Made by a program: the position numbers and the translations under genes
The notes under the pieces: model-generated
Databases searched by the model: none
What the model saw: only the letters and a program-made list of their open reading frames with translations
What the model was told of the DNA's origin: nothing
Source of the DNA: Minisyncoccia bacterium
GTDB taxonomy: Bacteria; Patescibacteriota; Patescibacteriia; Magasanikbacterales; UBA922
NCBI GenBank assembly: GCA_042218115.1
Contig: JBDGRJ010000040.1
Coordinates: 1 to 47,576 of the forward strand
Direction of reading: 5' to 3'
Length of the DNA: 47,576 nt
Shown: piece after piece, positions 4,501-30,082 of the stretch
Layout: each line of letters begins with the position of its first letter
Position numbering within the stretch: the stretch's first letter is position 1

Positions 4501-5603
4501 GCAGTTCAACAGGTAGTGAAGCATCAACTGCGGGATCTACTGGAGGTGGAGCCGAAACTACTGCGCAGGCAGATGAAACAGCGGCTGAACCTACTACGGA
4601 AGATGGAGCGGGCTACACCTCTCCTGAAGGTCCTGCAAGTATGCCGTCAGAAGTTCCTGAAGATACAGTAGAGCCGAGTGGAGGAGATACGGGGGAAGCT
4701 GCGGGGTACACCTCCACGGAAGGGACGGCTTCAATGCCTGAAGAAATTACGGGAAGTGAAGCAGGTGAGAGTGGCAAAGAGTTGGCAGAAGAAGCAGAAA
4801 GGTCCGCTGAAGGGGGGGCTGAAACAGAAGAAGCTGTATTAGAAGAAGAGGGGGTCCCAAAAGAGGCACAATCCTCTGCTCAAGAAGGAGATACAAGGGG
4901 AGTTACTGAGGGTCCACCTCCGTCAGTAGACGAGTCTGCTATTGATGTAGTCGGAGATGACAAGGCCGCAGAAGCAGGAGGAGAAACCATAGAGGCCGAT
5001 AGTGAAACAACAGAAGCTGGAACAGAATCGGCAAGTGAATCAGGAGGTGGTGGTGTTAGTTCAGCTTCAGAAGAAAATTTAGCTGCTGAGGGAGAAGCAG
5101 GAGAAGCTGAAGACGGAGATAGTTCTGAAGCAGAAGAAGCCGAAGCTGCTGCAGAAACAACAAAGGAGATAACCAAAGAGATAGGCGGCAGAGAGGTTAA
5201 TTTTATCGTCGAAGACGGCAAACTCTCTATGATTGATGACCCTGATCATGGTCAAATTTTTCTTGACCAGGAAGGTGATATTAATATCTCTACTTTAATG
5301 GCAGAAGAGACAGGTAAGCCAGCAATGGAAGACTTGGATTGGCTTGAAAACTACAATGAAATATATGAAGAAAGGGGTCTTTCAGGACCGGGGGGAGCTC
5401 AAGAATTTCAGTCTTTTGCTACTAAAGTAAATACTTTGAAAGAAGCATATCACGCTTTAATTGAAAGCAATTTAGACGTAGATGCTTCAGATATTACTCA
5501 AAAGGTGAATTCTGCTTTAGAGTCCCATTTGAAACAGGCTGAGGAAATGTATGGATTAGAAGTTGACAGAAGTGAATTTATACCCGAGGAGCCCAAAACT
5601 TAA
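1512..5603 (+). CDS. Giant hyper-acidic protein (1363 aa) with coiled-coil-like stretches, three Gly/Ala-rich hydrophobic segments and a low-complexity T/S/E/A/G tail
   Basis: Uninterrupted 4.1-kb ORF. The antisense ORFs are S/L/F-rich mirror images of GAA/GAG runs. Hydrophobic Gly-zipper-like segments lie at about nt 2691-2815, 3311-3410 and 3832-3900. No family recognised. Confidence 0.8.
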   Translation: MYSKPDIYFKTTGGPDDEYKVPTPESLEGGEEAEKDAESGGNIEDRQAEALEDARLEIEEVRNVLEDLRGTAEESERVGEEELDKLDDLKDAAEGVRDRAELAQRFQEADAEERREIYKKIYQNVKDHSKIRNELGQTVELLIPPPETLGSNEVSDKTEKDEWEGVSGETTVETFDEEETIKRLATLYDEKIDQEERVEELSDQKQEKTKDKKELNFKAEKQKLKQLEGKIEGLINELTEHTDKSTDEVAEEIAEYSDELEDTSETEEDEKSAEERDKTLDLPRSIMREAMVNQGESEKIVDALVEGNPDQARNIVENLFDNLSQDQLQRLEEALEGQGWELEEFLEKWEDELAGDVVEMYQQEINDRVQKKVQEQMTWTDKLRAGWKSAAKKVGAYGGSMFAGASAGAAAGSLLGPIGSIVGGVVGARFAKGGVDTVAEKSGVLEEGEDTKKEREESEMYLAEVKGYSDEAKEEIKSEMKIDIDEERQRILADTINQKLSKAPEKTRLDEWKNKILDVRAEELEEEDLEEEAINKKLEVLEHKLDKLIEAELRDGKTLVEAAVENGANKQAVEVLAEENAGDLPEDLKDSDVEKHLQRFGVPTTAGASAMAAAAAGGPVAGYMAYGGGKGGELGMRYGEKFDKDKVSEEMAERIEAVQSEVMERMDRYNTEEEIKSTSTEKLSDDLAKIKGALDKGIIDQEVVDAFDTIGEERGAGIKERVQQLEKEINRELNGRKLEDLDDHFKQIEAKSEISGQEDVEYILPDEEKKKRKYLGAVMGAAAGVVAGNLLGDYGGSSEQPTEQEKVPEEAQRTIGAEDVHEGGASYPGSGPASAKGEVPAVDLEAAEETSEIRMDPTEIEGAPPIDVAWEVKDPNGVIDGIKGIVEGKISLEDMDADTVTEFLENNDDLRDQYVEGLNEISEKHNIEIEDMKGVGVEDGDFVHREMQTQEIMDVFASVKSNPEEYPEFTKFLEELDSQTSGSPTTQPSATAEPTPGSSTGSEASTAGSTGGGAETTAQADETAAEPTTEDGAGYTSPEGPASMPSEVPEDTVEPSGGDTGEAAGYTSTEGTASMPEEITGSEAGESGKELAEEAERSAEGGAETEEAVLEEEGVPKEAQSSAQEGDTRGVTEGPPPSVDESAIDVVGDDKAAEAGGETIEADSETTEAGTESASESGGGGVSSASEENLAAEGEAGEAEDGDSSEAEEAEAAAETTKEITKEIGGREVNFIVEDGKLSMIDDPDHGQIFLDQEGDINISTLMAEETGKPAMEDLDWLENYNEIYEERGLSGPGGAQEFQSFATKVNTLKEAYHALIESNLDVDASDITQKVNSALESHLKQAEEMYGLEVDRSEFIPEEPKT

Positions 5604-7288: not shown

Positions 7289-9835
7289 ATGGAGTCAGAA
7301 TCTAAAACTGAGCAAAATCAAAAAAATAGCTCCAAACCAGTCTTTGTAAAGGCTCAAGATACTGAGGCTTCACCTCACATTGTAGATCTAAGAGAGGACG
7401 ATCCTGACTTGGAAGATGTTGGCAGCTTCAGAGAAAAAATGAATCAGGCTAGAGAGAGAAAGACGGTCGATTTTGCAGAGATGGTAAAACAGGCTAATGA
7501 AGACTCAAACCACAAGGAGGAGAATATTAAAATAGATCATGATAACCCTGCTAGCCACCAGCTGAGCCAAGAGACCCGGGAGTTGTCCCAGCAGAAAAAA
7601 GCGGTAAATATTAAGCTGGGACAAGCTAGTTCGGATGACTCTTCGGGTTTGCAATCTATCGCAGCTAAGCTGCCGAGCTCACAGATCAAGGCTGCTATTA
7701 GCGGGGCGGTTAATGCTATAGCTGAAGGCTTTTTCAGTACTGCTTCTGAGGCTGGGCCCGGCTCGGTCGGGTCGAGTTTGAGCGGTGCTGTAGAGAGACA
7801 AAAAGAAGCTCTAAAGACTTTTTGGGCTGATATGACACGACGAAGAGCTTTTGCTACTGTATTATCTCTTATAGCTGTATTATTGCTTCCGTTCCCGGTT
7901 GCTGGCTATTACAATAAAGTAAAACAAGACAGTCGTAGTATAGTGGAAAAATCAACACACGGCTTTTCCGCTTTGAGCAATTCTTCGGCAGCGCTATTTT
8001 CTTCTAATATTAATCAAGCAAAATATAATCTCGCTAGTGCACTGACTGCTTTCGATGAAGCGCAGTCTATGCTCAATAAGGACTATAAAACCGCTATCGA
8101 GATAGCTTCGCTGATTCCTATTATAGGAGACGATATTACGGCTAGAGAAAATCTACTTTCAGCAGGTCACCATTTAGCTTTAGGGAATACCTATTTAGTA
8201 AAGGGTGTATCTGATGCCAAAAATAAAACTGAACTTCCACTCACTGAACGCCTGCAGATAATTGAAAATCACCTCCAGAGCGCTATTCCTCAATATGAGC
8301 AGGCTCTGAGATCATTAGCGGTAGTTTCGAAAGATGAGGTTCCTAAAAAATATGCTGAAGTAAGTCAGGAGTTCAAGGTTTTGTTTGCTGCTATGATAGA
8401 TGATATGCAAGACCTGGTTTCGTTGATCGATACGGCACAGATGATATTCGGCCATCAAAGCTATAAGAAATATTTAGTAGTATTTCAAAATAGCAATGAG
8501 CTAAGACCGCTAGGAGGGTTTGCTGGCAGTTATGCGGTAGTGGAGGTGCAGAAAGGAAAGGTAAGCTGGGATATCCCCTCCGGTGGCAGTTATGATCTTC
8601 AAGGTCAGATGAATTTAAGTCTCAAACCACCTGTTCCTCTGCAGATGGTAAATAGTAAATGGGAGTTTCAAGATGCAAACTATTTTTCTCATCTCCCAGC
8701 CTCGGCTAAAGTAATGGAGGATATGTATACTGAAGCTCGGGGCTCGACTGTAGACGGTGTGATTACTGTAAACTCAGATGTGTTGAAGCGAGTATTGGAT
8801 GTAACCGGTCCGATAAACTTAAGTCAATTTGATGAGCCTATCACTAAAGAAAATGTGCTCAGAAAAGTTCAGAAGTCCGAAGAGGAGGTAAAGAAAAACA
8901 CCGACAAAAAGCCCAAAGCCATACTATCCCCGATAGCAGAAAGACTAATGGATAAGATAAAATCAGGTAAAAATACTGATCTGCTTCATCTGGCGGTTGA
9001 AGCCTATCAGGCCCTGAACCAGAAACAGATTCAGGTATATATGGAGGATGATCAGACTCAAGAAACTCTGCGCTCGTATGGTTGGACCGGAGAAATCTTG
9101 CCCGCCGCACCAAAGCAAGACTATCTGCATCTGGTCCACTCTAATCTGCAAGGACAAAAATCTAATGCTAAGATAAAAGAGAATCTAGAATTAAAAACAA
9201 AAATAAAATCAGACGGTACAGTGATAAATAAGCTCATAATAAATAGAAAACACACGGCGGACCCGGATGATCCTTTGTATGGCTCTACTAATTTTTCACA
9301 TGTACAAGCATTTGTTCCACAAGGAAGTAAGCTTGTAGCTGCAGAAGGTTTTGAGTTTCCGCCCGAGCGTGCATTCCGTGCACCTATCGACAATGCTAAA
9401 ACTCACCCTGTATTGAAGAAGCTAGCTAAAAATGAGCGGTATGATTCGGATACTGGTACCAGGATCAGTCGACAGTTTGGAAAAACAGTGTTTGGCCACT
9501 GGATCATCACTAAGCCCGGCCAATCCAGCAAAGCGTATATTAAATACAAGCTTCCCTTCAAAGTTAAAAGTAAAAAAGAGTTAACCAGCAACTTGCAACG
9601 TTGGAAGCAGGCAATCCTATCAAAGGATAGACAGGACGCTATATCTTACAGTATGTTTTTGCAGAAGCAATCCGGAACAAACTATTCTTTTAATCATGAA
9701 GTAAAACTAAGCTCGAAGTGGCGTCCGTTGTGGAGGTCAAGCGAAGAGGTTCAGTTTGGGGACGGGAAGGTGATGTATAAAAAACCACTTACATCCGATA
9801 CTAAGTACGGATTTTTACTAGAAAGTAGCAATTAA
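7289..9835 (+). CDS. DUF4012 domain-containing membrane protein
   Basis: Disordered N-terminus, one TM (AFATVLSLIAVLLLPFPVAGYY), then the motif NSNELRPLGGFAGSYAVVEV. I recall this motif as characteristic of DUF4012 proteins. Confidence 0.75.
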   Translation: MESESKTEQNQKNSSKPVFVKAQDTEASPHIVDLREDDPDLEDVGSFREKMNQARERKTVDFAEMVKQANEDSNHKEENIKIDHDNPASHQLSQETRELSQQKKAVNIKLGQASSDDSSGLQSIAAKLPSSQIKAAISGAVNAIAEGFFSTASEAGPGSVGSSLSGAVERQKEALKTFWADMTRRRAFATVLSLIAVLLLPFPVAGYYNKVKQDSRSIVEKSTHGFSALSNSSAALFSSNINQAKYNLASALTAFDEAQSMLNKDYKTAIEIASLIPIIGDDITARENLLSAGHHLALGNTYLVKGVSDAKNKTELPLTERLQIIENHLQSAIPQYEQALRSLAVVSKDEVPKKYAEVSQEFKVLFAAMIDDMQDLVSLIDTAQMIFGHQSYKKYLVVFQNSNELRPLGGFAGSYAVVEVQKGKVSWDIPSGGSYDLQGQMNLSLKPPVPLQMVNSKWEFQDANYFSHLPASAKVMEDMYTEARGSTVDGVITVNSDVLKRVLDVTGPINLSQFDEPITKENVLRKVQKSEEEVKKNTDKKPKAILSPIAERLMDKIKSGKNTDLLHLAVEAYQALNQKQIQVYMEDDQTQETLRSYGWTGEILPAAPKQDYLHLVHSNLQGQKSNAKIKENLELKTKIKSDGTVINKLIINRKHTADPDDPLYGSTNFSHVQAFVPQGSKLVAAEGFEFPPERAFRAPIDNAKTHPVLKKLAKNERYDSDTGTRISRQFGKTVFGHWIITKPGQSSKAYIKYKLPFKVKSKKELTSNLQRWKQAILSKDRQDAISYSMFLQKQSGTNYSFNHEVKLSSKWRPLWRSSEEVQFGDGKVMYKKPLTSDTKYGFLLESSN

Positions 9836-9837
9836 TT

Positions 9838-11904
9838 ATGTCAGACCAAGATCAAGAACAACATACTCATTCATTTGAGAAAAAAGAACTTTCTTCACCT
9901 TTCAGTGAAGACGATTCCGAAGAAAGCTCAGGTCAACCCGGCTCTACTGATGAAAAAGACCCAAAACAGCAAAAGGATGACTCTGAAGCTGAGAGAGAAG
10001 ACGGTTCAAAAGAGGAGTCTAAGCCAAAAGAAGTAGAAGAAGAGGACAAAGAAGAGAAAGAAACTAAGAGCGATCGAGTAAAAAATAAAGAAGAGATCGA
10101 CAAGGAGCTTAGAGAGATTTATGAAAACAAGGACGGTGAGGTGCCGGATATGTCTAATTTTAATACAAAAAATTCAAACAGTATGCTTAGAGCATTTACA
10201 ATCTTTTTGTTTTCTTTGCTTTTTCTAGCCGGAGTAGCTTGGCTCGGCTTTTTCTTCTTTCAGCCTCAAGATAGGTTTTCAGAAGATAAAGTCGTCTTCT
10301 CTATAGAATCACCTCAAGAGGTTAAGATAGGAGAAGAGGTGCATTACCGAATCAAGTATCAAAATAGGCAAAATGTTCCCTTATCGAAAGCTAATATAAA
10401 TGTGCGCTACCCTGAAGGCTTCGTCTTTGAACGAGCTGAGCCCGAACCTACAGAGGGTGACAACAGCTGGAAGCTGGGTACCGTAGAAAAGATAAGCGCG
10501 GATTACATAGATATCTACGGCAAACTTTACGGAGATATTAAACAAAAACAATCTCTACGTGCGTTCTTGAACTATACTCCAGCTAATTTCTCTTCCCCGT
10601 TCCAGAAGGTAGCTACTTTTGATACTGAAATATCGAGTTCCCCACTATCTGCGTCTGTTTCCGGCCCTGATAAGCTTGCTGTGGGTGAGAAAGGTGAGTG
10701 GAATATAAATGTCACCTCGAATCAGACTCAGCCGGTTGAAAATTTAAGGGTCCGGATTAAAGCAGGTAACAATTTTCGTTTCACAGATCGAACTCCGGCA
10801 GCGACTAATACCCCAGAAAATATTTGGCAAATTGATAAGCTGAAGGATAAAAAAGAGTTTAGCTTTAGCGGTGTGTTTGAAAGCAAAAAAGAAGATAACA
10901 GAATTAAGCTGGAGGTGTTGGGACAGAAAGAAAAACCTGAAGATGAACTGCAACCGGATAGATATTTGTTTGCTCGATCAGAACAGAAAGTTGCACTCTC
11001 GGAGACAAGCCTGAATTTCAGCTTAGCGATAAACGGAGCTTTAGGTAACTTCTCGGTTCGTCCCGGAGAGGCATTAAATACCACTCTGAAGATAGAAAAT
11101 AATGGTAAAGAGCCGGTAAAAGATGCTGAGGTAAAGATGGTTTTTGATGCTCCGTCAAATGACAGACAAGCTATCTTAGAGCGCAGTATCCTGCACTGGT
11201 CTGAGATTAAAAATGTAGGCACTGAAAATATTGTCGGAGACCAAATCAACGATAACGTTCGTCGGGGCACAATTACTTGGGATACTAACTCCACACCGGA
11301 TCTGTCTGAAATCAAGCCGGGAGAATCAGTAGAGCTGAGCTTTACTTTGCCAGTAAAAAGCAGTGAAATTATCGACCTCACGGAGTTTGATACCTACACC
11401 ACAAAAGCAAAAGCTGATCTAAAATACAAAATCGATGATAAGGTAGAAACCGTATCTACCAATAAGTTTGATATAACTATGAATTCTGATCTAAATATCG
11501 ATGTCACTGATACGGTGACCGAGAACGATGATGGCGAGAAGGTACATAATGTAGCCTGGGTTTTGGATAATAACTTTCACAAGGTCGAAAATGTACGAGT
11601 AGAAGCAGATATATTTGGGGATATAGAATGGAAAGAGGACGCTCTAAACACTACTACCGGGACTGCTAAGTTTGACCAGGAAAATCAGCATCTTACTTGG
11701 AGTATTGATCAGATGCCAGCTAATGCCCAGCCACAGACTCTTAATTTCGCTACTATACTCAAAGAATATGACCCAACTCAGACTAATCTAACTTCGAGGG
11801 TAAAAGTTAAGGCTAGAGATACGAAAACCGGGGAAGAGGTAATAATATCGGGAGATGAGGTGCTGCTTCAAAGTGCTACTTCTACGATTGAGAATACGCC
11901 ATAA
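9838..11904 (+). CDS. Membrane-anchored surface protein (acidic N-terminus, one TM, long beta-rich ectodomain), hypothetical
   Basis: Starts 3 nt after the DUF4012 stop codon. TM segment MLRAFTIFLFSLLFLAGVAWLGFFFF. The repetitive beta-strand-like sequence is reminiscent of Ig/CARDB-type repeats, but no family is assigned. Confidence 0.7.
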   Translation: MSDQDQEQHTHSFEKKELSSPFSEDDSEESSGQPGSTDEKDPKQQKDDSEAEREDGSKEESKPKEVEEEDKEEKETKSDRVKNKEEIDKELREIYENKDGEVPDMSNFNTKNSNSMLRAFTIFLFSLLFLAGVAWLGFFFFQPQDRFSEDKVVFSIESPQEVKIGEEVHYRIKYQNRQNVPLSKANINVRYPEGFVFERAEPEPTEGDNSWKLGTVEKISADYIDIYGKLYGDIKQKQSLRAFLNYTPANFSSPFQKVATFDTEISSSPLSASVSGPDKLAVGEKGEWNINVTSNQTQPVENLRVRIKAGNNFRFTDRTPAATNTPENIWQIDKLKDKKEFSFSGVFESKKEDNRIKLEVLGQKEKPEDELQPDRYLFARSEQKVALSETSLNFSLAINGALGNFSVRPGEALNTTLKIENNGKEPVKDAEVKMVFDAPSNDRQAILERSILHWSEIKNVGTENIVGDQINDNVRRGTITWDTNSTPDLSEIKPGESVELSFTLPVKSSEIIDLTEFDTYTTKAKADLKYKIDDKVETVSTNKFDITMNSDLNIDVTDTVTENDDGEKVHNVAWVLDNNFHKVENVRVEADIFGDIEWKEDALNTTTGTAKFDQENQHLTWSIDQMPANAQPQTLNFATILKEYDPTQTNLTSRVKVKARDTKTGEEVIISGDEVLLQSATSTIENTP

Positions 11905-24747: not shown

Positions 24748-24784
24748 TTTGACCCTCTAAGAAAGACGTAGTACAATACATACA

Positions 24785-24966
24785 CCTGTCCTACAGGAGG
24801 AGAAAACCATGTCCGACACCCAATAAATAGGGGGCTTATATCGGCTTGGCCCGGCGGTTCGTCCGTAGGTCAAGTTCTGCGGCCACCCACTATACCATTC
24901 AGGGACATTAGGTTAATCCCCTGAGGGCAGGTATAAAGCGGCTCGCAGATTGCTGCGAGCTGTTTT
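24785..24966 (+). promoter_or_regulatory. Structured GC-rich leader: 5-codon mini-ORF with a strong SD, alternative antiterminator/terminator helices, terminator at 24941-24966
   Basis: AGGAGG (24795-24800) is followed 8 nt later by ATG TCC GAC ACC CAA TAA (24809-24826). The terminator is GCTCGCAG-ATTG-CTGCGAGC plus TGTTTT. Nucleotides 24876-24884 (TCTGCGGCC) can instead pair with 24940-24949, giving 9 bp with one bulge. The class is not identified. Confidence 0.4.
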
Positions 24967-25501: not shown

Positions 25502-25609
25502 ATGCATAAGAGCTTCCGCTTTGAAAATTCAATGCTCGTGAGTATTGTGCTTATTATTATCCTCGCCAGCCGAGGCGGAGCTCTTCTAGTACCTGAACGA
25601 GCCAGGTAA
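25502..25609 (+). CDS. Leader peptide ORF 1 (35 aa, Ile/Val/Leu-rich)
   Basis: MHKSFRFENSMLVSIVLIIILASRGGALLVPERAR, translated by hand. 9 of 11 consecutive residues (LVSIVLIIILA) are branched-chain. It overlaps attenuator helices 1 and 2. Confidence 0.45.
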   Translation: MHKSFRFENSMLVSIVLIIILASRGGALLVPERAR

Positions 25610-25632
25610 CACGAACCAAAAAACAAAGAAGA

Positions 25633-25657
25633 GCCCGCCGGAGACGGCGGGCTTTTT
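25633..25657 (+). terminator. Rho-independent terminator (attenuator) of module 1
   Basis: GCCCGCCG-GAGA-CGGCGGGC followed by TTTTT. It lies between the promoter/leader and the ATP-grasp gene. Confidence 0.75.
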
Positions 25658-25873
25658 AAATTTAACAGTCTTTACAAAAGAAACAAAAAATGATAAGTTC
25701 ATATCATTTCTCATCCGGATTAGCTTTTTAAAGGGTTAACCTGGCTGAGAAAGCCATAGCTCTTTAGATCTTTACATATCGGTGTGTAAACCACTCTTGC
25801 CATCCGAGAAGCTGTTTGGCTTTTGGGGTGGCAAGAGTGTGTTAATTGAATTCTCACGGAAGAGGAAAATACG

Positions 25874-27070
25874 ATGAGAGTCTTGATTCATTCGATGATG
25901 ATGTATGTCCACCTCTTGCAGGGGGAGGTGGACGAGCTGAAGAATTATTCGGGGCGCGCCCTGCTCGCCCCGCGGTCTTACGGTGCCGTCGTCTACGACA
26001 CCGAGACTGCTCGCAGGTATGCCAGGTACCTGCGAAATCTTGAGCTTGGGCCGGAGAAGGTTTGGTTCGTGGAGCAGAAGGGCAAGACCCTATTTCACGC
26101 GCTGAACCAATCCGGCACCCTCCAGAAGGTCCTGAAAGCCGCCGACTCGATCGCCCCGTTCGTCTCGTGGGAGAAGACGAACCAATTCCGCGAGGAATGG
26201 GGGCTCGATCATGGTCGGTGGTACGGCCAGGACCGTGAGGACCACGTAAGTCTGGAGAACAAGGCGCAACTTCGCCGACGTTTTCCGGATTCGTGGTTCT
26301 CAGAATACGAGATCTTCCCGGCTGGAGATATCAGCGGAATCCAGGAGTACGGATTTCGCTTGATGGCAAAGTACGGGAAGATCCTAGTCCGGCATCCGAA
26401 GAAGGCATCGGGTGTCGGGCTCCGATTCCTGGAGGACTCGGAGGAGCTCCACTCCTCCAAGCTCATCGAGTTTCTCCAAGGCTTTGCCGGTGAGGAGTTG
26501 CTCGTCGAGCAGTTCTTCTCCGGGGCCGAGGAGTACTCGATAACCTGGGAAAGGGGGCTTGGTGGAGAGCCCCGACAGCTCTACTGGTCGGGACAATTCA
26601 TCAAGTCCGGCGTGCATCAGGGCAACTTGATTGCCTCGCCGGAGACCCTCCTCCCCGAGGAGGCCCAGGGAGCGATCGAGGAGATCGAGGCCGCCACCCG
26701 CGAGATCGTGTCAAACCACGACTCGCCGGGCCGGTACGGTTTTGACCTTCTCATCCGACCCAACGGAGAGTGGGTCGTAATCGAGTGTAACTGCCGATAT
26801 GGGGGGAGCGCCTATCCCGCCTTCGTTCGAGAGAACGTAGGGGAGGATCGTTGTGTCATCATGCACAACGTCTATCCCGAAACGGCGGAGAGCTTCGAGG
26901 AGGTCCACGAAGCCTTCGAGGAGCTCGGGCTCGACTACGACCCCTCGAGCCGAGAGGGTGCGCTCGTTGGCAACCCCTTCGCCCTTCCGGCGAAATGTGC
27001 CGCGGTGATCGTGGCCAATAAGCCGGACGAGGTGAAAGGGATGCTCAAGCGCATCCAAAATAATCTCTAA
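25874..27070 (+). CDS. ATP-grasp superfamily ligase, high-GC paralog (398 aa)
   Basis: ILVRHPKKASGVG (Lys plus Gly-rich loop), LVEQF and the Mg-binding-like ECNCRYGG. It aligns over its full length with the 28150..29337 product. GC is about 57-68% in two lines I counted. Confidence 0.8.
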   Translation: MRVLIHSMMMYVHLLQGEVDELKNYSGRALLAPRSYGAVVYDTETARRYARYLRNLELGPEKVWFVEQKGKTLFHALNQSGTLQKVLKAADSIAPFVSWEKTNQFREEWGLDHGRWYGQDREDHVSLENKAQLRRRFPDSWFSEYEIFPAGDISGIQEYGFRLMAKYGKILVRHPKKASGVGLRFLEDSEELHSSKLIEFLQGFAGEELLVEQFFSGAEEYSITWERGLGGEPRQLYWSGQFIKSGVHQGNLIASPETLLPEEAQGAIEEIEAATREIVSNHDSPGRYGFDLLIRPNGEWVVIECNCRYGGSAYPAFVRENVGEDRCVIMHNVYPETAESFEEVHEAFEELGLDYDPSSREGALVGNPFALPAKCAAVIVANKPDEVKGMLKRIQNNL

Positions 27071-27178
27071 CTCTACTGACGAAGGAGGTCGACCCGCTAC
27101 CTGGCAGCGTGGTCGGAACCTCTTTGTGTAGACAAGTTGTTTGTCTATACAAACAGGGTTAAATATTAATCAATCAAA

Positions 27179-27910
27179 ATGGAGACTAATGAAAGAATTT
27201 TGGTTGTTCAGTTTCGTACTGACGATTCTGAAGACCATGAGCAAAAATGTTTTCATGAAGACTACAATGATCTTAGTGTAGATCTTCACTTTGAGAGTGC
27301 TATTAGTGGGGATTTAGAAAATTGTCGTTTAGATGATTATCACGGGGTAATTTTAGGAGGAAGTGGCGAGTATTATTTGACTGAAGGTGCAGGTAAGGGT
27401 AGCTGGAGGCAGGATGCATTTGAGTTTATAAATAAAACCTTAAATAAAGAGAAGCCTACTTTGGGTATTTGCTTTGGGTCTCAGCTGCTAGCTCTACACC
27501 AGGGTGGCAAGCTTGTCAGTGATGAAAAGTATCACGAATCAGGATCTTACCAAGTAGATTTAACAAAAGAGGCAGAAGATTGTGATATTTTTTCCAACAT
27601 GGATCCATCGTTTAATGCTACTATAGCTCACCAGGATACTCACATAGATATGCCTGATAATATCGTTCCTTTAGCAAGCTCGGAGAGAGTCCCCTGTCAG
27701 GCCTTCAAGGTGAAAGATAAGCCAGCTTGGGGTACCCTATTCCACCCGGAGCTAAATGCTGACAGGCTTGATTATAGACTTCGGCTCTACCCGTCTTACG
27801 TAGATAATGAGCATCTGATTGATGAGATTATACAGGACTTTGATGACACATCCTATTCTATCAATATATTACATCACTTCTATCATTATATCGCAGAAAA
27901 TATTGATTAA
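27179..27910 (+). CDS. Class I glutamine amidotransferase-like protein (COG0518/GuaA-type, peptidase C26-like fold)
   Basis: Nucleophile elbow LGICFGSQLLA and the His-Glu pair in LFHPELN. Confidence 0.85.
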   Translation: METNERILVVQFRTDDSEDHEQKCFHEDYNDLSVDLHFESAISGDLENCRLDDYHGVILGGSGEYYLTEGAGKGSWRQDAFEFINKTLNKEKPTLGICFGSQLLALHQGGKLVSDEKYHESGSYQVDLTKEAEDCDIFSNMDPSFNATIAHQDTHIDMPDNIVPLASSERVPCQAFKVKDKPAWGTLFHPELNADRLDYRLRLYPSYVDNEHLIDEIIQDFDDTSYSINILHHFYHYIAENID

Positions 27911-28064: not shown

Positions 28065-28088
28065 GTTGAATTTTTTCAGCCAGTAAAG

Positions 28089-28112
28089 AGCCCGCCGGAG
28101 ACGGCGGGCTTT
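28089..28112 (+). terminator. Rho-independent terminator (attenuator) of module 2
   Basis: The same GCCCGCCG-GAGA-CGGCGGGC hairpin followed by TTTT. It is 37 nt upstream of the ATP-grasp ATG. Confidence 0.75.
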
Positions 28113-28149: not shown

Positions 28150-29337
28150 ATGAAGACCCACATACATGATTTGAGCTTGTTTGTAACTTTTCTCAAAGGG
28201 TACATTTCCGGGGTAGAGGATTATGTAGCCAGGGCACTCTTATCTCCAGAGGGGGCCGTGGTCTTTGATGATTATGACGTGGATAATTATGTAGAATATC
28301 TGCGAGATATAAATGTAGGTCCCAAGAAAGTTTGGTCGGTAGAGTCTACCGGGGATACTCTATTTCACGCTTTAGATCAAAGTAATCAGCTGGATGAGGT
28401 ACTTGAGCAAAGTGATGTAATAGTGCCGTTCGTATCTTGGGAATATACCAATAAATTTAAAGACAAATGGGGCCTGAAAGACAGTCAGTGGAAGACTCAA
28501 CCCCCCGAAGTTCACCAAAAGCTAGAAAATAAGACTCACTTAAGAGAGATAGGAAAAGAGGAGTGGTTTACAGACTATACTACCTGTAGAGACAAAGAGT
28601 TAGTGGAGGTGGGTCAAGAAATGCTCAGAGAGTACGAGAATATTTTAGTACGTCATCCTAAAAAAGCTAGTGGTGTGGGCGCAGAACAGATAGGAGACCC
28701 GAATTATTTTCAGTCCCAAGACTTTGATCAGTTTGTAGAAGAACATTCTGATGATAACCACTTTTTAGTTGAGGAGTTTTATGAGAAAGGGGAGGAGTTT
28801 AGCATTATCTGGGATGTATCAGCAGAGGGTGAGCCCAAACTTCAATTTTGGACCAGGCAATATATTAATGATTGTGTACATCAGGGTAATATGGTGGCCG
28901 ATGTTGAAGTTGTATTCCCTTGGGAGGCTGAAACAACTATTAGTGAGATAAAAGATGCTACTCGTAGAATAATTGAGGAGTACCCATACTTTGGGCGTAT
29001 AGGTTTTGATTTGAAGGTTTCGCCTTCCGGTGAGTGGAAAATATTGGAGTGTAATTGCAGATACGGTGGGTCTTCTTATCCAGGGTTTACTAGAGAGCAA
29101 GTGGGGGAGGATCGTTGTGTGTTAATGCATAACATTCACCCTAGGCTAGATAATTTTCAGCAGGTACACCAAGCTTTTGTGGAGGCAGATGTAGATTACT
29201 CAAAGGAAGATAGAATAGGCGCTTTTGTAGCCAACCCATTTTGCCTGCCGGACAAGTGTGCTGCTATGATCGTAGCAGAAAACCCCGATGAGGCGGAGCA
29301 GATTCTATCTACTATCTTGGATAAAGTCGATAAATAA
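28150..29337 (+). CDS. ATP-grasp superfamily ligase, low-GC paralog (395 aa)
   Basis: ILVRHPKKASGVG, LVEEF, ECNCRYGGSSYPGF and GEDRCVLMHN. It is collinear with the 25874..27070 product. Confidence 0.8.
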   Translation: MKTHIHDLSLFVTFLKGYISGVEDYVARALLSPEGAVVFDDYDVDNYVEYLRDINVGPKKVWSVESTGDTLFHALDQSNQLDEVLEQSDVIVPFVSWEYTNKFKDKWGLKDSQWKTQPPEVHQKLENKTHLREIGKEEWFTDYTTCRDKELVEVGQEMLREYENILVRHPKKASGVGAEQIGDPNYFQSQDFDQFVEEHSDDNHFLVEEFYEKGEEFSIIWDVSAEGEPKLQFWTRQYINDCVHQGNMVADVEVVFPWEAETTISEIKDATRRIIEEYPYFGRIGFDLKVSPSGEWKILECNCRYGGSSYPGFTREQVGEDRCVLMHNIHPRLDNFQQVHQAFVEADVDYSKEDRIGAFVANPFCLPDKCAAMIVAENPDEAEQILSTILDKVDK

Positions 29338-29344
29338 TTTAACT

Positions 29345-30082
29345 GTGGGCTCGGATATTAATATAACTGTTATACAATACAGAACCGATGAGTCCAGGCT
29401 CCATGAGCAAAGATGTTTTCAAGACCAGTTTTCTAAGCTAGGAGTAGAGTTTGAATTTATAAATGCAATCGAGGAGGATTTGAGCACTGATGTGATAGAG
29501 GATACACACGGGTTAATTTTAGGGGGAAGTACTGAGTTTTCTTTGTCAAAGCTAGATTGGGGTGACCATACTTGGATAGATACAAGTTTTAATATTTTAA
29601 ACGAGTTAACCAACAGGGAGCTTCCTACTTTGGGGATTTGCTTTGGTTATCACTTGATTGCTCTACATCAGGGTGGTAAAATCACCAATGAAGATAAATA
29701 TCACCAAAGTGGATCTTTTCAGTTAAGTCTATCTCAGCATAAGCATAAATGTGATATTTTCTCTAATCTTCCAGAAGAGTTTTACGCTCAGCTAGGACAT
29801 GTAGACACCCCTGTTGATTTGCCCGAAAACGGCTTGTCATTAGCCTCTTCTAATGAAGTACCTCATCAGGCTTTCAAGGTAGAAGATAGGCCCGTATGGG
29901 GGGTGTTATTTCATCCTGAGCTTAACAAACAAAGAGCCAAAGAGAGATTGGCTATGTTTCTCGATTGTGAGGTAGGCAGCGAAGAGTTCAATCAGGAGGT
30001 GAAAAAACTGGAGAGTAGCCCTGAATCCCAACGGGTTATTCACGAATTTATTAAGTTTACTAATAGAAAGTGTCATGAATAA
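29345..30082 (+). CDS. Class I glutamine amidotransferase-like protein, paralog 2
   Basis: LGICFGYHLIA and LFHPELN. I prefer the GTG at 29345 (VGSDINITVIQYRTDE...) because it aligns with the start of paralog 1 and avoids overlap with the ATP-grasp gene. Confidence 0.8.
   Translation: MGSDINITVIQYRTDESRLHEQRCFQDQFSKLGVEFEFINAIEEDLSTDVIEDTHGLILGGSTEFSLSKLDWGDHTWIDTSFNILNELTNRELPTLGICFGYHLIALHQGGKITNEDKYHQSGSFQLSLSQHKHKCDIFSNLPEEFYAQLGHVDTPVDLPENGLSLASSNEVPHQAFKVEDRPVWGVLFHPELNKQRAKERLAMFLDCEVGSEEFNQEVKKLESSPESQRVIHEFIKFTNRKCHE

Follow-up and report, generated by a model that had tools for sequence, protein, structure and literature searches.

The window described here is a contig of 47,576 nucleotides (nt) from a Minisyncoccia bacterium (JBDGRJ010000040.1, assembly GCA_042218115.1), and carries a gene, lig1, predicted to encode an ATP-grasp ligase, whose coding sequence (CDS) is strikingly GC-rich between AT-rich neighbours, including its own paralog, lig2. 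The same GC-rich gene occupies the same position in other, deeply diverged lineages, its divergence is out of step with that of its flanks, its alleles are mosaic, and its synonymous sites are moving from GC towards AT. The explanation towards which we lean is a CDS-precise lateral replacement of the resident ligase gene by members of a GC-rich allele family, which would still be exchanged among its hosts and whose source has not been sampled. The window is contig C35 of assembly G000, a metagenome-assembled genome (MAG) of 973 kb in 84 contigs, with a GC content of 0.396 and a completeness score of 85%. DUF4012, YceG and EF-G among its genes point to a bacterium of the Patescibacteria, or candidate phyla radiation (CPR), and the nearest named homolog likewise comes from a CPR organism. 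Throughout, W denotes the lig1 allele or locus of the present genome, and L004, L005, L006/L007, L017 and L018 are the loci with which it was compared.

The GC shift of lig1 is far beyond ordinary intragenomic variance. In a sliding profile, GC rises from ~0.39–0.41 to 0.56–0.64 between 25900 and 27100, and among 1200-nt windows genome-wide (mean GC 0.397, standard deviation (SD) 0.041) the lig1 window, at 0.596, lies ~4.8 SD out. lig1 itself has a GC content of 0.591 (0.62/0.39/0.76 at the three codon positions), and its third-position GC (GC3) ranks third among 828 open reading frames (ORFs) of at least 100 aa (genome mean 0.376, SD 0.08; 4.8 SD), although it is not unique, as ~14 ORFs of the genome have a GC3 of at least 0.6. 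An earlier note on this DNA, made from the letters alone, had placed the jump within the first ~15 codons and its end ~55 nt past the stop codon, with native composition in the paralog, neighbours and downstream amidotransferase gene, and had allowed that the shift might yet lie within normal variance. Apart from this last possibility, now dismissed, its description holds: the fitted start is at 25909 and the first 15 codons (25874–25918) are 40% GC; the fit ends at 27120, and 27071–27125 is 60% GC because a GC-rich hairpin sits beyond the stop; lig2 has GC 0.419 and GC3 0.40, the neighbouring genes GC3 0.33–0.44, and the amidotransferase gene, GAT1, is AT-rich. The two lines that had been counted by hand, 26581–26640 and 26941–27000, are exactly 56.7% and 68.3% GC. 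The block edges, codon 12 and the post-stop hairpin, are not arbitrary positions. Long off-frame ORFs over lig1 are also present, as had been claimed, and are spurious since their positions differ between orthologs; dual coding was rejected, as neither overlapping nor antisense ORFs are conserved in position.

Four further lig1 sequences, with 70–77% amino-acid identity, were found in a protein collection of 5.8 billion clusters, on contigs L004, L005, L006/L007 and L017, which derive from other samples and other assemblers (ENA ERZ23491536, SRR28304478, SRR28305195 and SRR18572992/4). In all, five other contigs (1.4–99 kb, four other samples) repeat the GC-rich lig1 in the same gene order. 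At these loci, lig1 has a GC of 0.54–0.60 and a GC3 of 0.60–0.76, compared with flank GC3 of 0.16–0.43; by copy, GC3 is 0.76 in W and L005, and 0.60–0.61 in the three others. W and L006 are colinear through both junctions, at 85–93% identity. An assembly chimera, which the earlier note had offered as one of its two explanations, or a mis-binned GC-rich fragment, would suit the sharp boundaries and the fragmented MAG (84 contigs, 85% complete); yet with the CDS set between the same AT-rich elements in five independent contigs, the junctions colinear in L006, and the edges at codon 12 and the post-stop hairpin, this explanation is refuted and its probability negligible. For annotation practice, the lesson is that a sharply bounded GC island limited to one gene can occur in a MAG without mis-assembly.

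The divergence of lig1 is discordant with that of its surroundings. L006 represents the sister genome of W, with flanking proteins 76–91% identical and flanking DNA ~79%; L004 and L005 are distant, their flanks being 44–80% identical with synonymous sites saturated. Identity of lig1 is nevertheless 77% for W–L006 (flanks 76–91%) and 75% for W–L004 (flanks 46–80%). The tree paths for the same two pairs are 0.33 versus 0.37 in lig1 and 0.145 versus ~1.1 in lig2, and the ratio of their non-synonymous divergences (dN) is 0.89 for lig1 and 0.18 for lig2. Between W and L006, dN of lig1 is twice that of the flanks, and synonymous divergence (dS) is half that of the flanks or less (0.97, compared with 1.7 to >3), while deep pairs are measurable for lig1 only. 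To correct for composition, synonymous codons were shuffled gene by gene, and the same-codon identity in excess of the resulting expectation was scored: lig1 gave 0.15–0.44 (z 4–9) for every pair, the highest being W–L005, whereas the flanks gave 0.18–0.25 for W–L006 and ~0 for all deep pairs. The synonymous signal of GAT1 follows the genome tree, not lig1. In the tree, the lig1 sequences group together with 100/100 support at the end of a long stem, and are either the sister group of the lig2 sequences or nested beside them.

Comparison of W with L005 revealed a mosaic. DNA identity of the two alleles is 0.81–0.91 in alignment columns 226–975 and 0.51–0.64 at both ends, and protein identity is 84% in the centre versus 57% and 49% at the ends. 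Inside the segment 132 of 166 informative sites favour L005, and outside it 136 of 179 favour L004, giving a maximum chi-square of 106 (permutation p≤0.005); a second lig1 mosaic involves W, L006 and L004 (chi-square 39). As the other allele pairs are uniform along the gene, the W–L005 pattern is not due to constraint. lig1 alleles have evidently recombined across lineages, a signal that the flanking genes do not carry. The description of the replacement as very recent can be kept in a relative sense only: the central segment postdates the separation of W from its sister lineage, yet the alleles still differ at dS ~0.7–2.2.

The direction of compositional change was read from strictly polarised synonymous changes, given here as GC→AT : AT→GC. 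These number 14 : 1 in the L004 allele, 13 : 4 in L017, 18 : 3 in L006, 6 : 3 in W and 7 : 5 in L005. Summed over all alleles they come to 58 : 16, or 78% GC→AT, where 80–85% is expected under the AT-biased mutation of the genome at a GC3 of 0.70–0.75, and 50% at a maintained equilibrium. Being near the neutral expectation, this share indicates that lig1 is losing GC; the loss is strong in three lineages and weak in W and L005. The L006 allele has dropped to a GC3 of 0.44 in its 5′ part. Majority-rule polarisation had pointed to an AT→GC gain in W, and was rejected because parallel decay in the other lineages biases it. The encoded protein has shifted too, with a Gly+Ala+Arg+Pro share of 27.1% in lig1 and 18.1% in lig2, and lig1 prefers C over T (0.74 vs 0.34) and G over A (0.79 vs 0.39). 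The shifted amino-acid usage, and the like behaviour of both base choices, argue for a pressure at the nucleotide level and against tRNA-based codon selection; the 26 tRNAs found in the 85%-complete MAG form an incomplete repertoire.

lig1 belongs to a conserved two-module locus with the order NDK, hypothetical protein, leader, [ligase], glutamine amidotransferase (GATase), leader, lig2, GATase, rhodanese and PBP (Table 1). In a genus-mate (L018, GCA_042218065), the lig1 position is occupied by a different ATP-grasp-like protein of ~437 aa, whose identity to lig1 is only 24%. Its gene is preceded by the same leader hairpin (ACTCTTGCC...GGCAAGAGT) and a GGAGGAGG Shine-Dalgarno (SD) motif, and is followed by a hairpin and the same TAGACAA...TTGTCTA palindrome. 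As a different ligase stands between the same conserved borders, the replaceable unit would be the CDS, and the leader hairpin appears to belong to the slot rather than to lig1. An Rfam E-value scan of the leader region gave sub-threshold leader-like matches only.

Table 1. Features of the lig1 locus, in window coordinates
Feature	Position	Strand	Basis and remarks
Leader mini-ORF, 35 codons, Ile/Val/Leu-rich, upstream of module 1	25502..25609	+	Read from the sequence; alignable in L006/L007 and L004
GC-rich terminator hairpin behind the mini-ORF	25629..25656	+	Inverted repeat and terminator scan; same block before lig2 at 28085–28112
Leader hairpin ACTCTTGCC ... GGCAAGAGT	25787..25844	+	Inverted repeat; conserved in W, L004, L005, L006 and L017, also ahead of the L018 ligase
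SD-like GGAAGAGGA, 7 nt ahead of the ATG	25858..25866	+	GGAGGA/GGAGG in orthologs and L018
lig1, 398-aa ATP-grasp amino-acid/peptide-ligase-like gene	25874..27070	+	ORF; GC 0.59, GC3 0.76
GC-rich block	25909..27120	.	Two-change-point likelihood fit: GC 0.600 inside vs 0.390 outside, log-likelihood gain 69
GC-rich hairpin right after the lig1 stop, then TTTGTGT	27084..27122	+	Hairpin at the equivalent position in all orthologous loci, including L018
Small palindrome TAGACAA-n5-TTGTCTA, 3′ edge of the slot	27129..27147	+	Conserved in 6/6 loci, including L018
GAT1, class-I glutamine amidotransferase/peptidase C26-like, native AT-rich	27179..27910	+	Pfam PF00117 at 2.9e-17; GC3 0.34
lig2, 395 aa, 46%-identical paralog of lig1, native composition	28150..29337	+	lig1 has no nearer relative anywhere
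GAT2, the other amidotransferase partner, sharing 44% identity with GAT1	29288..30082	+	Class-I GATase/peptidase C26-like

The predicted structure of lig1 (AlphaFold2; mean predicted local distance difference test 86.3, predicted template-modelling (TM) score 0.84) confirms, at the level of a model, a three-domain ATP-grasp fold: all of the top 20 Foldseek matches in the PDB are ATP-grasp ligases (E 4e-20 to 3e-15, TM 0.63–0.77). Whole-chain fold matches include the Streptomyces peptide ligase 8ynd, PGM1 (3wvq), BesA (8yi6) and LdmS/SAOUHSC_02373 (7r8p). From these, lig1 differs in sharing just 12–17% identity, and in being paired with a class-I GATase/C26-like protein behind a leader mini-ORF. 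Its weak profile matches are to LdmS and to the ATP-grasp domains of CPSase and PurK, with no Pfam or NCBIfam model reaching its cut-off (PF14243 19.0 bits against 26.3, PF02655 16.9 against 23.2, NCBIfam LdmS 18.9 against 475). Across 13 lig1/lig2 sequences there is no variation at K176 (in VRHPKKASG) or at E304, N306 and R308 (in ECNCR); by the family pattern, the Lys would bind the nucleotide, and the Glu-x-Asn near the C-terminal domain would bind Mg. Together with a dN/dS of 0.09–0.31 between alleles, the fold and invariant residues argue that lig1 is a functional ligase gene. Its reaction would be an ATP-dependent amino-acid or gamma-glutamyl-type ligation, performed with the adjacent amidotransferase/C26-like protein.

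The search for a donor led back to the phylum of the recipients. An exhaustive HMMER profile search of 1.84 billion representatives returned one cluster holding lig1 and lig2, after which scores drop to 182 bits, and nothing closer to lig1 than lig2. In 41 genomes of related species, both ligases occur only in the present genome, and a genus-mate has the lig2 type. The ligase family is thus apparently restricted to Patescibacteria. The codon usage of lig1 (CTC, GTC, TCG, CGN, GCC, CCG) resembles that of GC-rich genomes. As the nearest relative is lig2 and the next clusters include Uhrbacteria/Patescibacteria, any source would need to combine a CPR-type gene with a GC-rich carrier that has not been sampled.

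These results can be assembled into the following scheme. The putative ligase gene would occupy a replaceable first-ligase slot in the conserved two-module locus. Its CDS would stem from an allele family shaped where the compositional equilibrium was GC-rich, in a genome or element not yet sampled, and would have replaced the resident first ligase. The family would have entered several deeply diverged salt-lake Patescibacteria, among which it would still be exchanged. The exchange would probably proceed by homologous recombination, with breakpoints inside the gene or with borders provided by the conserved leader/SD and the 3′ hairpins; this would leave only the CDS foreign in composition. In its AT-rich hosts, lig1 would be off its compositional equilibrium, and its synonymous sites are decaying from GC to AT at about the neutral rate. 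Replacement of the ligase gene alone, which the earlier note had suggested, is supported in modified form by the other ligase in the L018 slot, the discordant divergence, the mosaics and the GC→AT decay; a one-off event in the present genome finds no support.

lig1 is not the only gene of this kind in the genome. The ~14 ORFs with a GC3 of at least 0.6 lie at C12:18700-22700, C69:28534-29853, C76:5900-12300 and C81:3-746, and on C26, C27 and C37; most have no Pfam match, while others include an integrase, a sigma-70 region-4 protein and a DEAD-box helicase fragment. GGAG or GAGG is found upstream of ~6% of ORFs genome-wide, and among ORFs with GC3 of at least 0.6 the share led by GGAGG is 29%, versus ~1% genome-wide. 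The GC-rich ORFs of C76 are split by spacers of only 18–24% GC. The C12 island resembles lig1 in having GC-rich CDSs in AT-rich CPR DNA, a strong SD in an SD-poor genome and a narrow distribution among relatives, and differs in holding several genes of unknown or surface-type function rather than one enzyme gene; for lig1, the adjoining AT-rich paralog permits a direct test of history. The C12 island is without rRNA, and in Rfam scans neither the window nor three other GC-rich islands yielded any rRNA, the only matches being two tRNAs; a partial relative of the C12 island lies inside a ~9-kb block (L033, C6:28000-37000) of 52–63% GC in G018, a genome of 41–45% GC from another genus of the same family. 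In G018, a perfect GGAGG behind an A-rich leader is seen in 4 of the 6 GC-richest sampled ORFs versus 0 of 41 others. No 16S rRNA was found in the present MAG, and the anti-SD was read instead from G018, whose 16S ends in GGATCACCTCCTTTCT, with the canonical CCTCC. In ~218 kb sampled from the genus-mate G001, few GC-rich ORFs and no SD enrichment were found, so the class effect is not universal in the genus. The GC-rich ORFan on C69 (421–439 aa; L003:1535-2854 versus L029:1138-2406) matches its ortholog in the sister lineage at 87% identity, with GC3 of 0.72 and 0.71, and only 24% of its four-fold sites differ between the sisters versus 53–66% in ordinary genes; this second GC-rich gene consequently seems to be of more recent origin than its genome, or under stronger constraint. 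For the 597-aa GC-rich protein of C12, no ortholog was found in the sister lineage. The codon-preference fingerprint of lig1 correlates with that of the other GC-rich ORFs at r = 0.54, which is not discriminating; some likeness to the codon usage of haloarchaea is conceivable.

Several results weigh against the scheme of a GC-rich allele family that replaces resident genes and is exchanged among hosts. The total of lig1 sequences is only five among ~15 billion proteins, all in AT-rich CPR contexts; the named members of the next-closest clusters are solely Uhrbacteria/Patescibacteria; and JGI metagenome contigs and IMG/VR, when scanned with peptide patterns, yielded neither relatives of the ligases nor a GC-rich source. 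The divergent ends of the L005 allele, at 49–57% amino-acid identity to W, are also GC-rich (GC3 0.71–0.76), which requires either a diverse hidden reservoir or long maintenance in situ. Decay in W and L005 combined is 13 : 8, milder than the neutral expectation. At the lig1 junctions (25600–27400) there is no integrase, tRNA or flanking direct or inverted repeat, the tRNAs of the window lying only at 13.5–14.1 kb. All comparison sequences are metagenome contigs, in which assembly cross-overs within a conserved gene may be a source of apparent mosaicism. Finally, in an approximately unbiased (AU) topology test, a W+L006 clade of lig1 was not rejected (p-AU 0.28); no claim of horizontal transfer is therefore based on topology, and the discordance is apparent instead from branch lengths and rates, the synonymous signal and the mosaicism. 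The chief rival view supposes that lig1 is a native, old paralog whose GC is sustained in place, by GC-biased gene conversion (gBGC) tied to frequent recombination or by selection on the GC content of mRNA or DNA, as one of a clade-wide class of GC-rich, SD-led genes, a rather unlikely alternative in our judgement. The family seems confined to Patescibacteria with no donor in view, every allele is GC-rich in an AT-rich context, and recombination is seen directly in lig1 and not in its flanks. Also in favour of this view are a class effect, seen in the GGAGG enrichment here and in G018 with its canonical 16S, the maintained GC3 of the C69 gene in both sisters, and the C76 ORFs among their AT-rich spacers. 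Recombination-associated increase in GC3 has been documented in bacteria (Lassalle et al. 2015, PMC4450053), and lig1 is similar in that a visibly recombining gene is the GC-richest of its neighbourhood. It differs in its flux, which runs from GC to AT and not the reverse, is near neutral and far from the 1:1 of maintenance, and has already brought the 5′ part of L006 down to a GC3 of 0.44. Moreover, a GC3 excess of about +0.4 (from 0.37 to at least 0.76) is, to our knowledge, much larger than any effect of gBGC reported in bacteria. The GC-rich ORFs are also accessory and patchy, as lig1, the C69 gene and the C12 gene were not found in most relatives.

Two further explanations have far less to commend them. 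A single, very recent replacement, in which the present genome took its copy from a high-GC donor outside the phylum, the other explanation offered by the earlier note, could account for codon usage like that of GC-rich genomes, for the W allele having the shortest branch and highest GC3, and for a central segment much younger than the W–L006 genome split. GC-rich lig1 is found, however, in the same location in three or more lineages that diverged deeply, with alleles differing at dS 0.7–2.2, and both the profile search and the tree place lig2 and Patescibacteria proteins closest, with no homolog from another phylum near. The orthologs appear to have largely refuted such a one-off import, which we consider very improbable. 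Slightly less credence still is given to vertical inheritance with translational selection, in which GC-ending codons would serve expression, for example robust decoding in amino-acid starvation behind a leader-peptide attenuator. The Ile/Val/Leu-rich mini-ORF and strong SD ahead of lig1 suit this idea, as does the lower synonymous divergence of lig1 than of its flanks between the sisters. On the other side, the preference for C over T equals in strength that for G over A, though one tRNA serves both NNC and NNT; amino-acid composition has also moved towards GC-rich codons; lig2, likewise behind a leader mini-ORF, is AT-rich; the dN ratios (0.89 and 0.18) and the mosaic alleles contradict simple vertical descent; and the flux is from GC to AT.

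The proposed replacement of the resident ligase gene by a GC-rich allele family has its closest parallel in xenologous, or in-situ, displacement followed by amelioration, the model of Lawrence and Ochman in which acquired genes are said to decay compositionally. The likeness lies in a single atypical gene within native flanks, a discordant history and a net GC→AT synonymous flux. Unlike that model, lig1 has no nameable donor, its family appears confined to the phylum of the recipients, and the swap would be CDS-precise between conserved regulatory elements, recurrent in deep lineages and accompanied by mosaic alleles. CPR bacteria are usually described as having reduced genomes that evolve mainly by loss; lig1 would be a single enzyme gene moving between deeply diverged CPR lineages into a fixed regulatory slot, for which the AT-rich paralog and partner genes serve as internal controls. 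Its composition is beyond what the known hosts could produce, which suggests either that hypersaline communities hold a GC-rich partner not yet sampled or that recombination brings a GC bias of unusual strength. More tentatively, and with distinctly less assurance, it may be proposed that salt-lake Patescibacteria of this family keep a small GC-rich, SD-led accessory compartment (lig1, surface-protein islands and ORFans) in AT-rich, largely SD-less genomes. This compartment would be replenished by CDS-precise homologous exchange between lineages that diverged deeply, and its composition would come from a hidden GC-rich reservoir (a host, or an element with CPR-type genes) or from a recombination-coupled GC bias raising GC3 by 0.4. 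The link between GC-rich genes and SD motifs, in genomes that otherwise ignore them, is a testable handle on translation control.

Other genes near the slot vary among the loci. L004 has an extra GCS2-type carboxylate-amine ligase gene (4700–5491; GC3 0.43 versus 0.25 in the flanks) and a third GATase gene (8014–8736), and L005 has an extra AAA_14/DUF4143 gene and GATase gene (8181–10330), with lig1 following an ilv-type operon. From such gene content, the locus looks like a hotspot of ligase and amidotransferase gene turnover. Within the window, the terminator hairpin is identical in the two module leaders although the surrounding leaders differ, and may reflect gene conversion between the modules. 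Further upstream, the non-coding stretch 24754–24953, between ndk and a gene for a 147-aa protein, is 94–97% identical between W and L006, compared with ~79% for the coding flanks; an Rfam search gave no significant match for it, and its conservation suggests a strongly constrained RNA or regulatory element. Elsewhere in the genome, at C16:1800-3564 (L016), adjacent genes encode a TP_methylase (diphthine-synthase-like) and a TRM5/TYW2-type methyltransferase, with GC3 of 0.56–0.58. Genes of both types are more typical of archaea, and the pair could be archaeal-derived DNA or part of a mis-binned contig.

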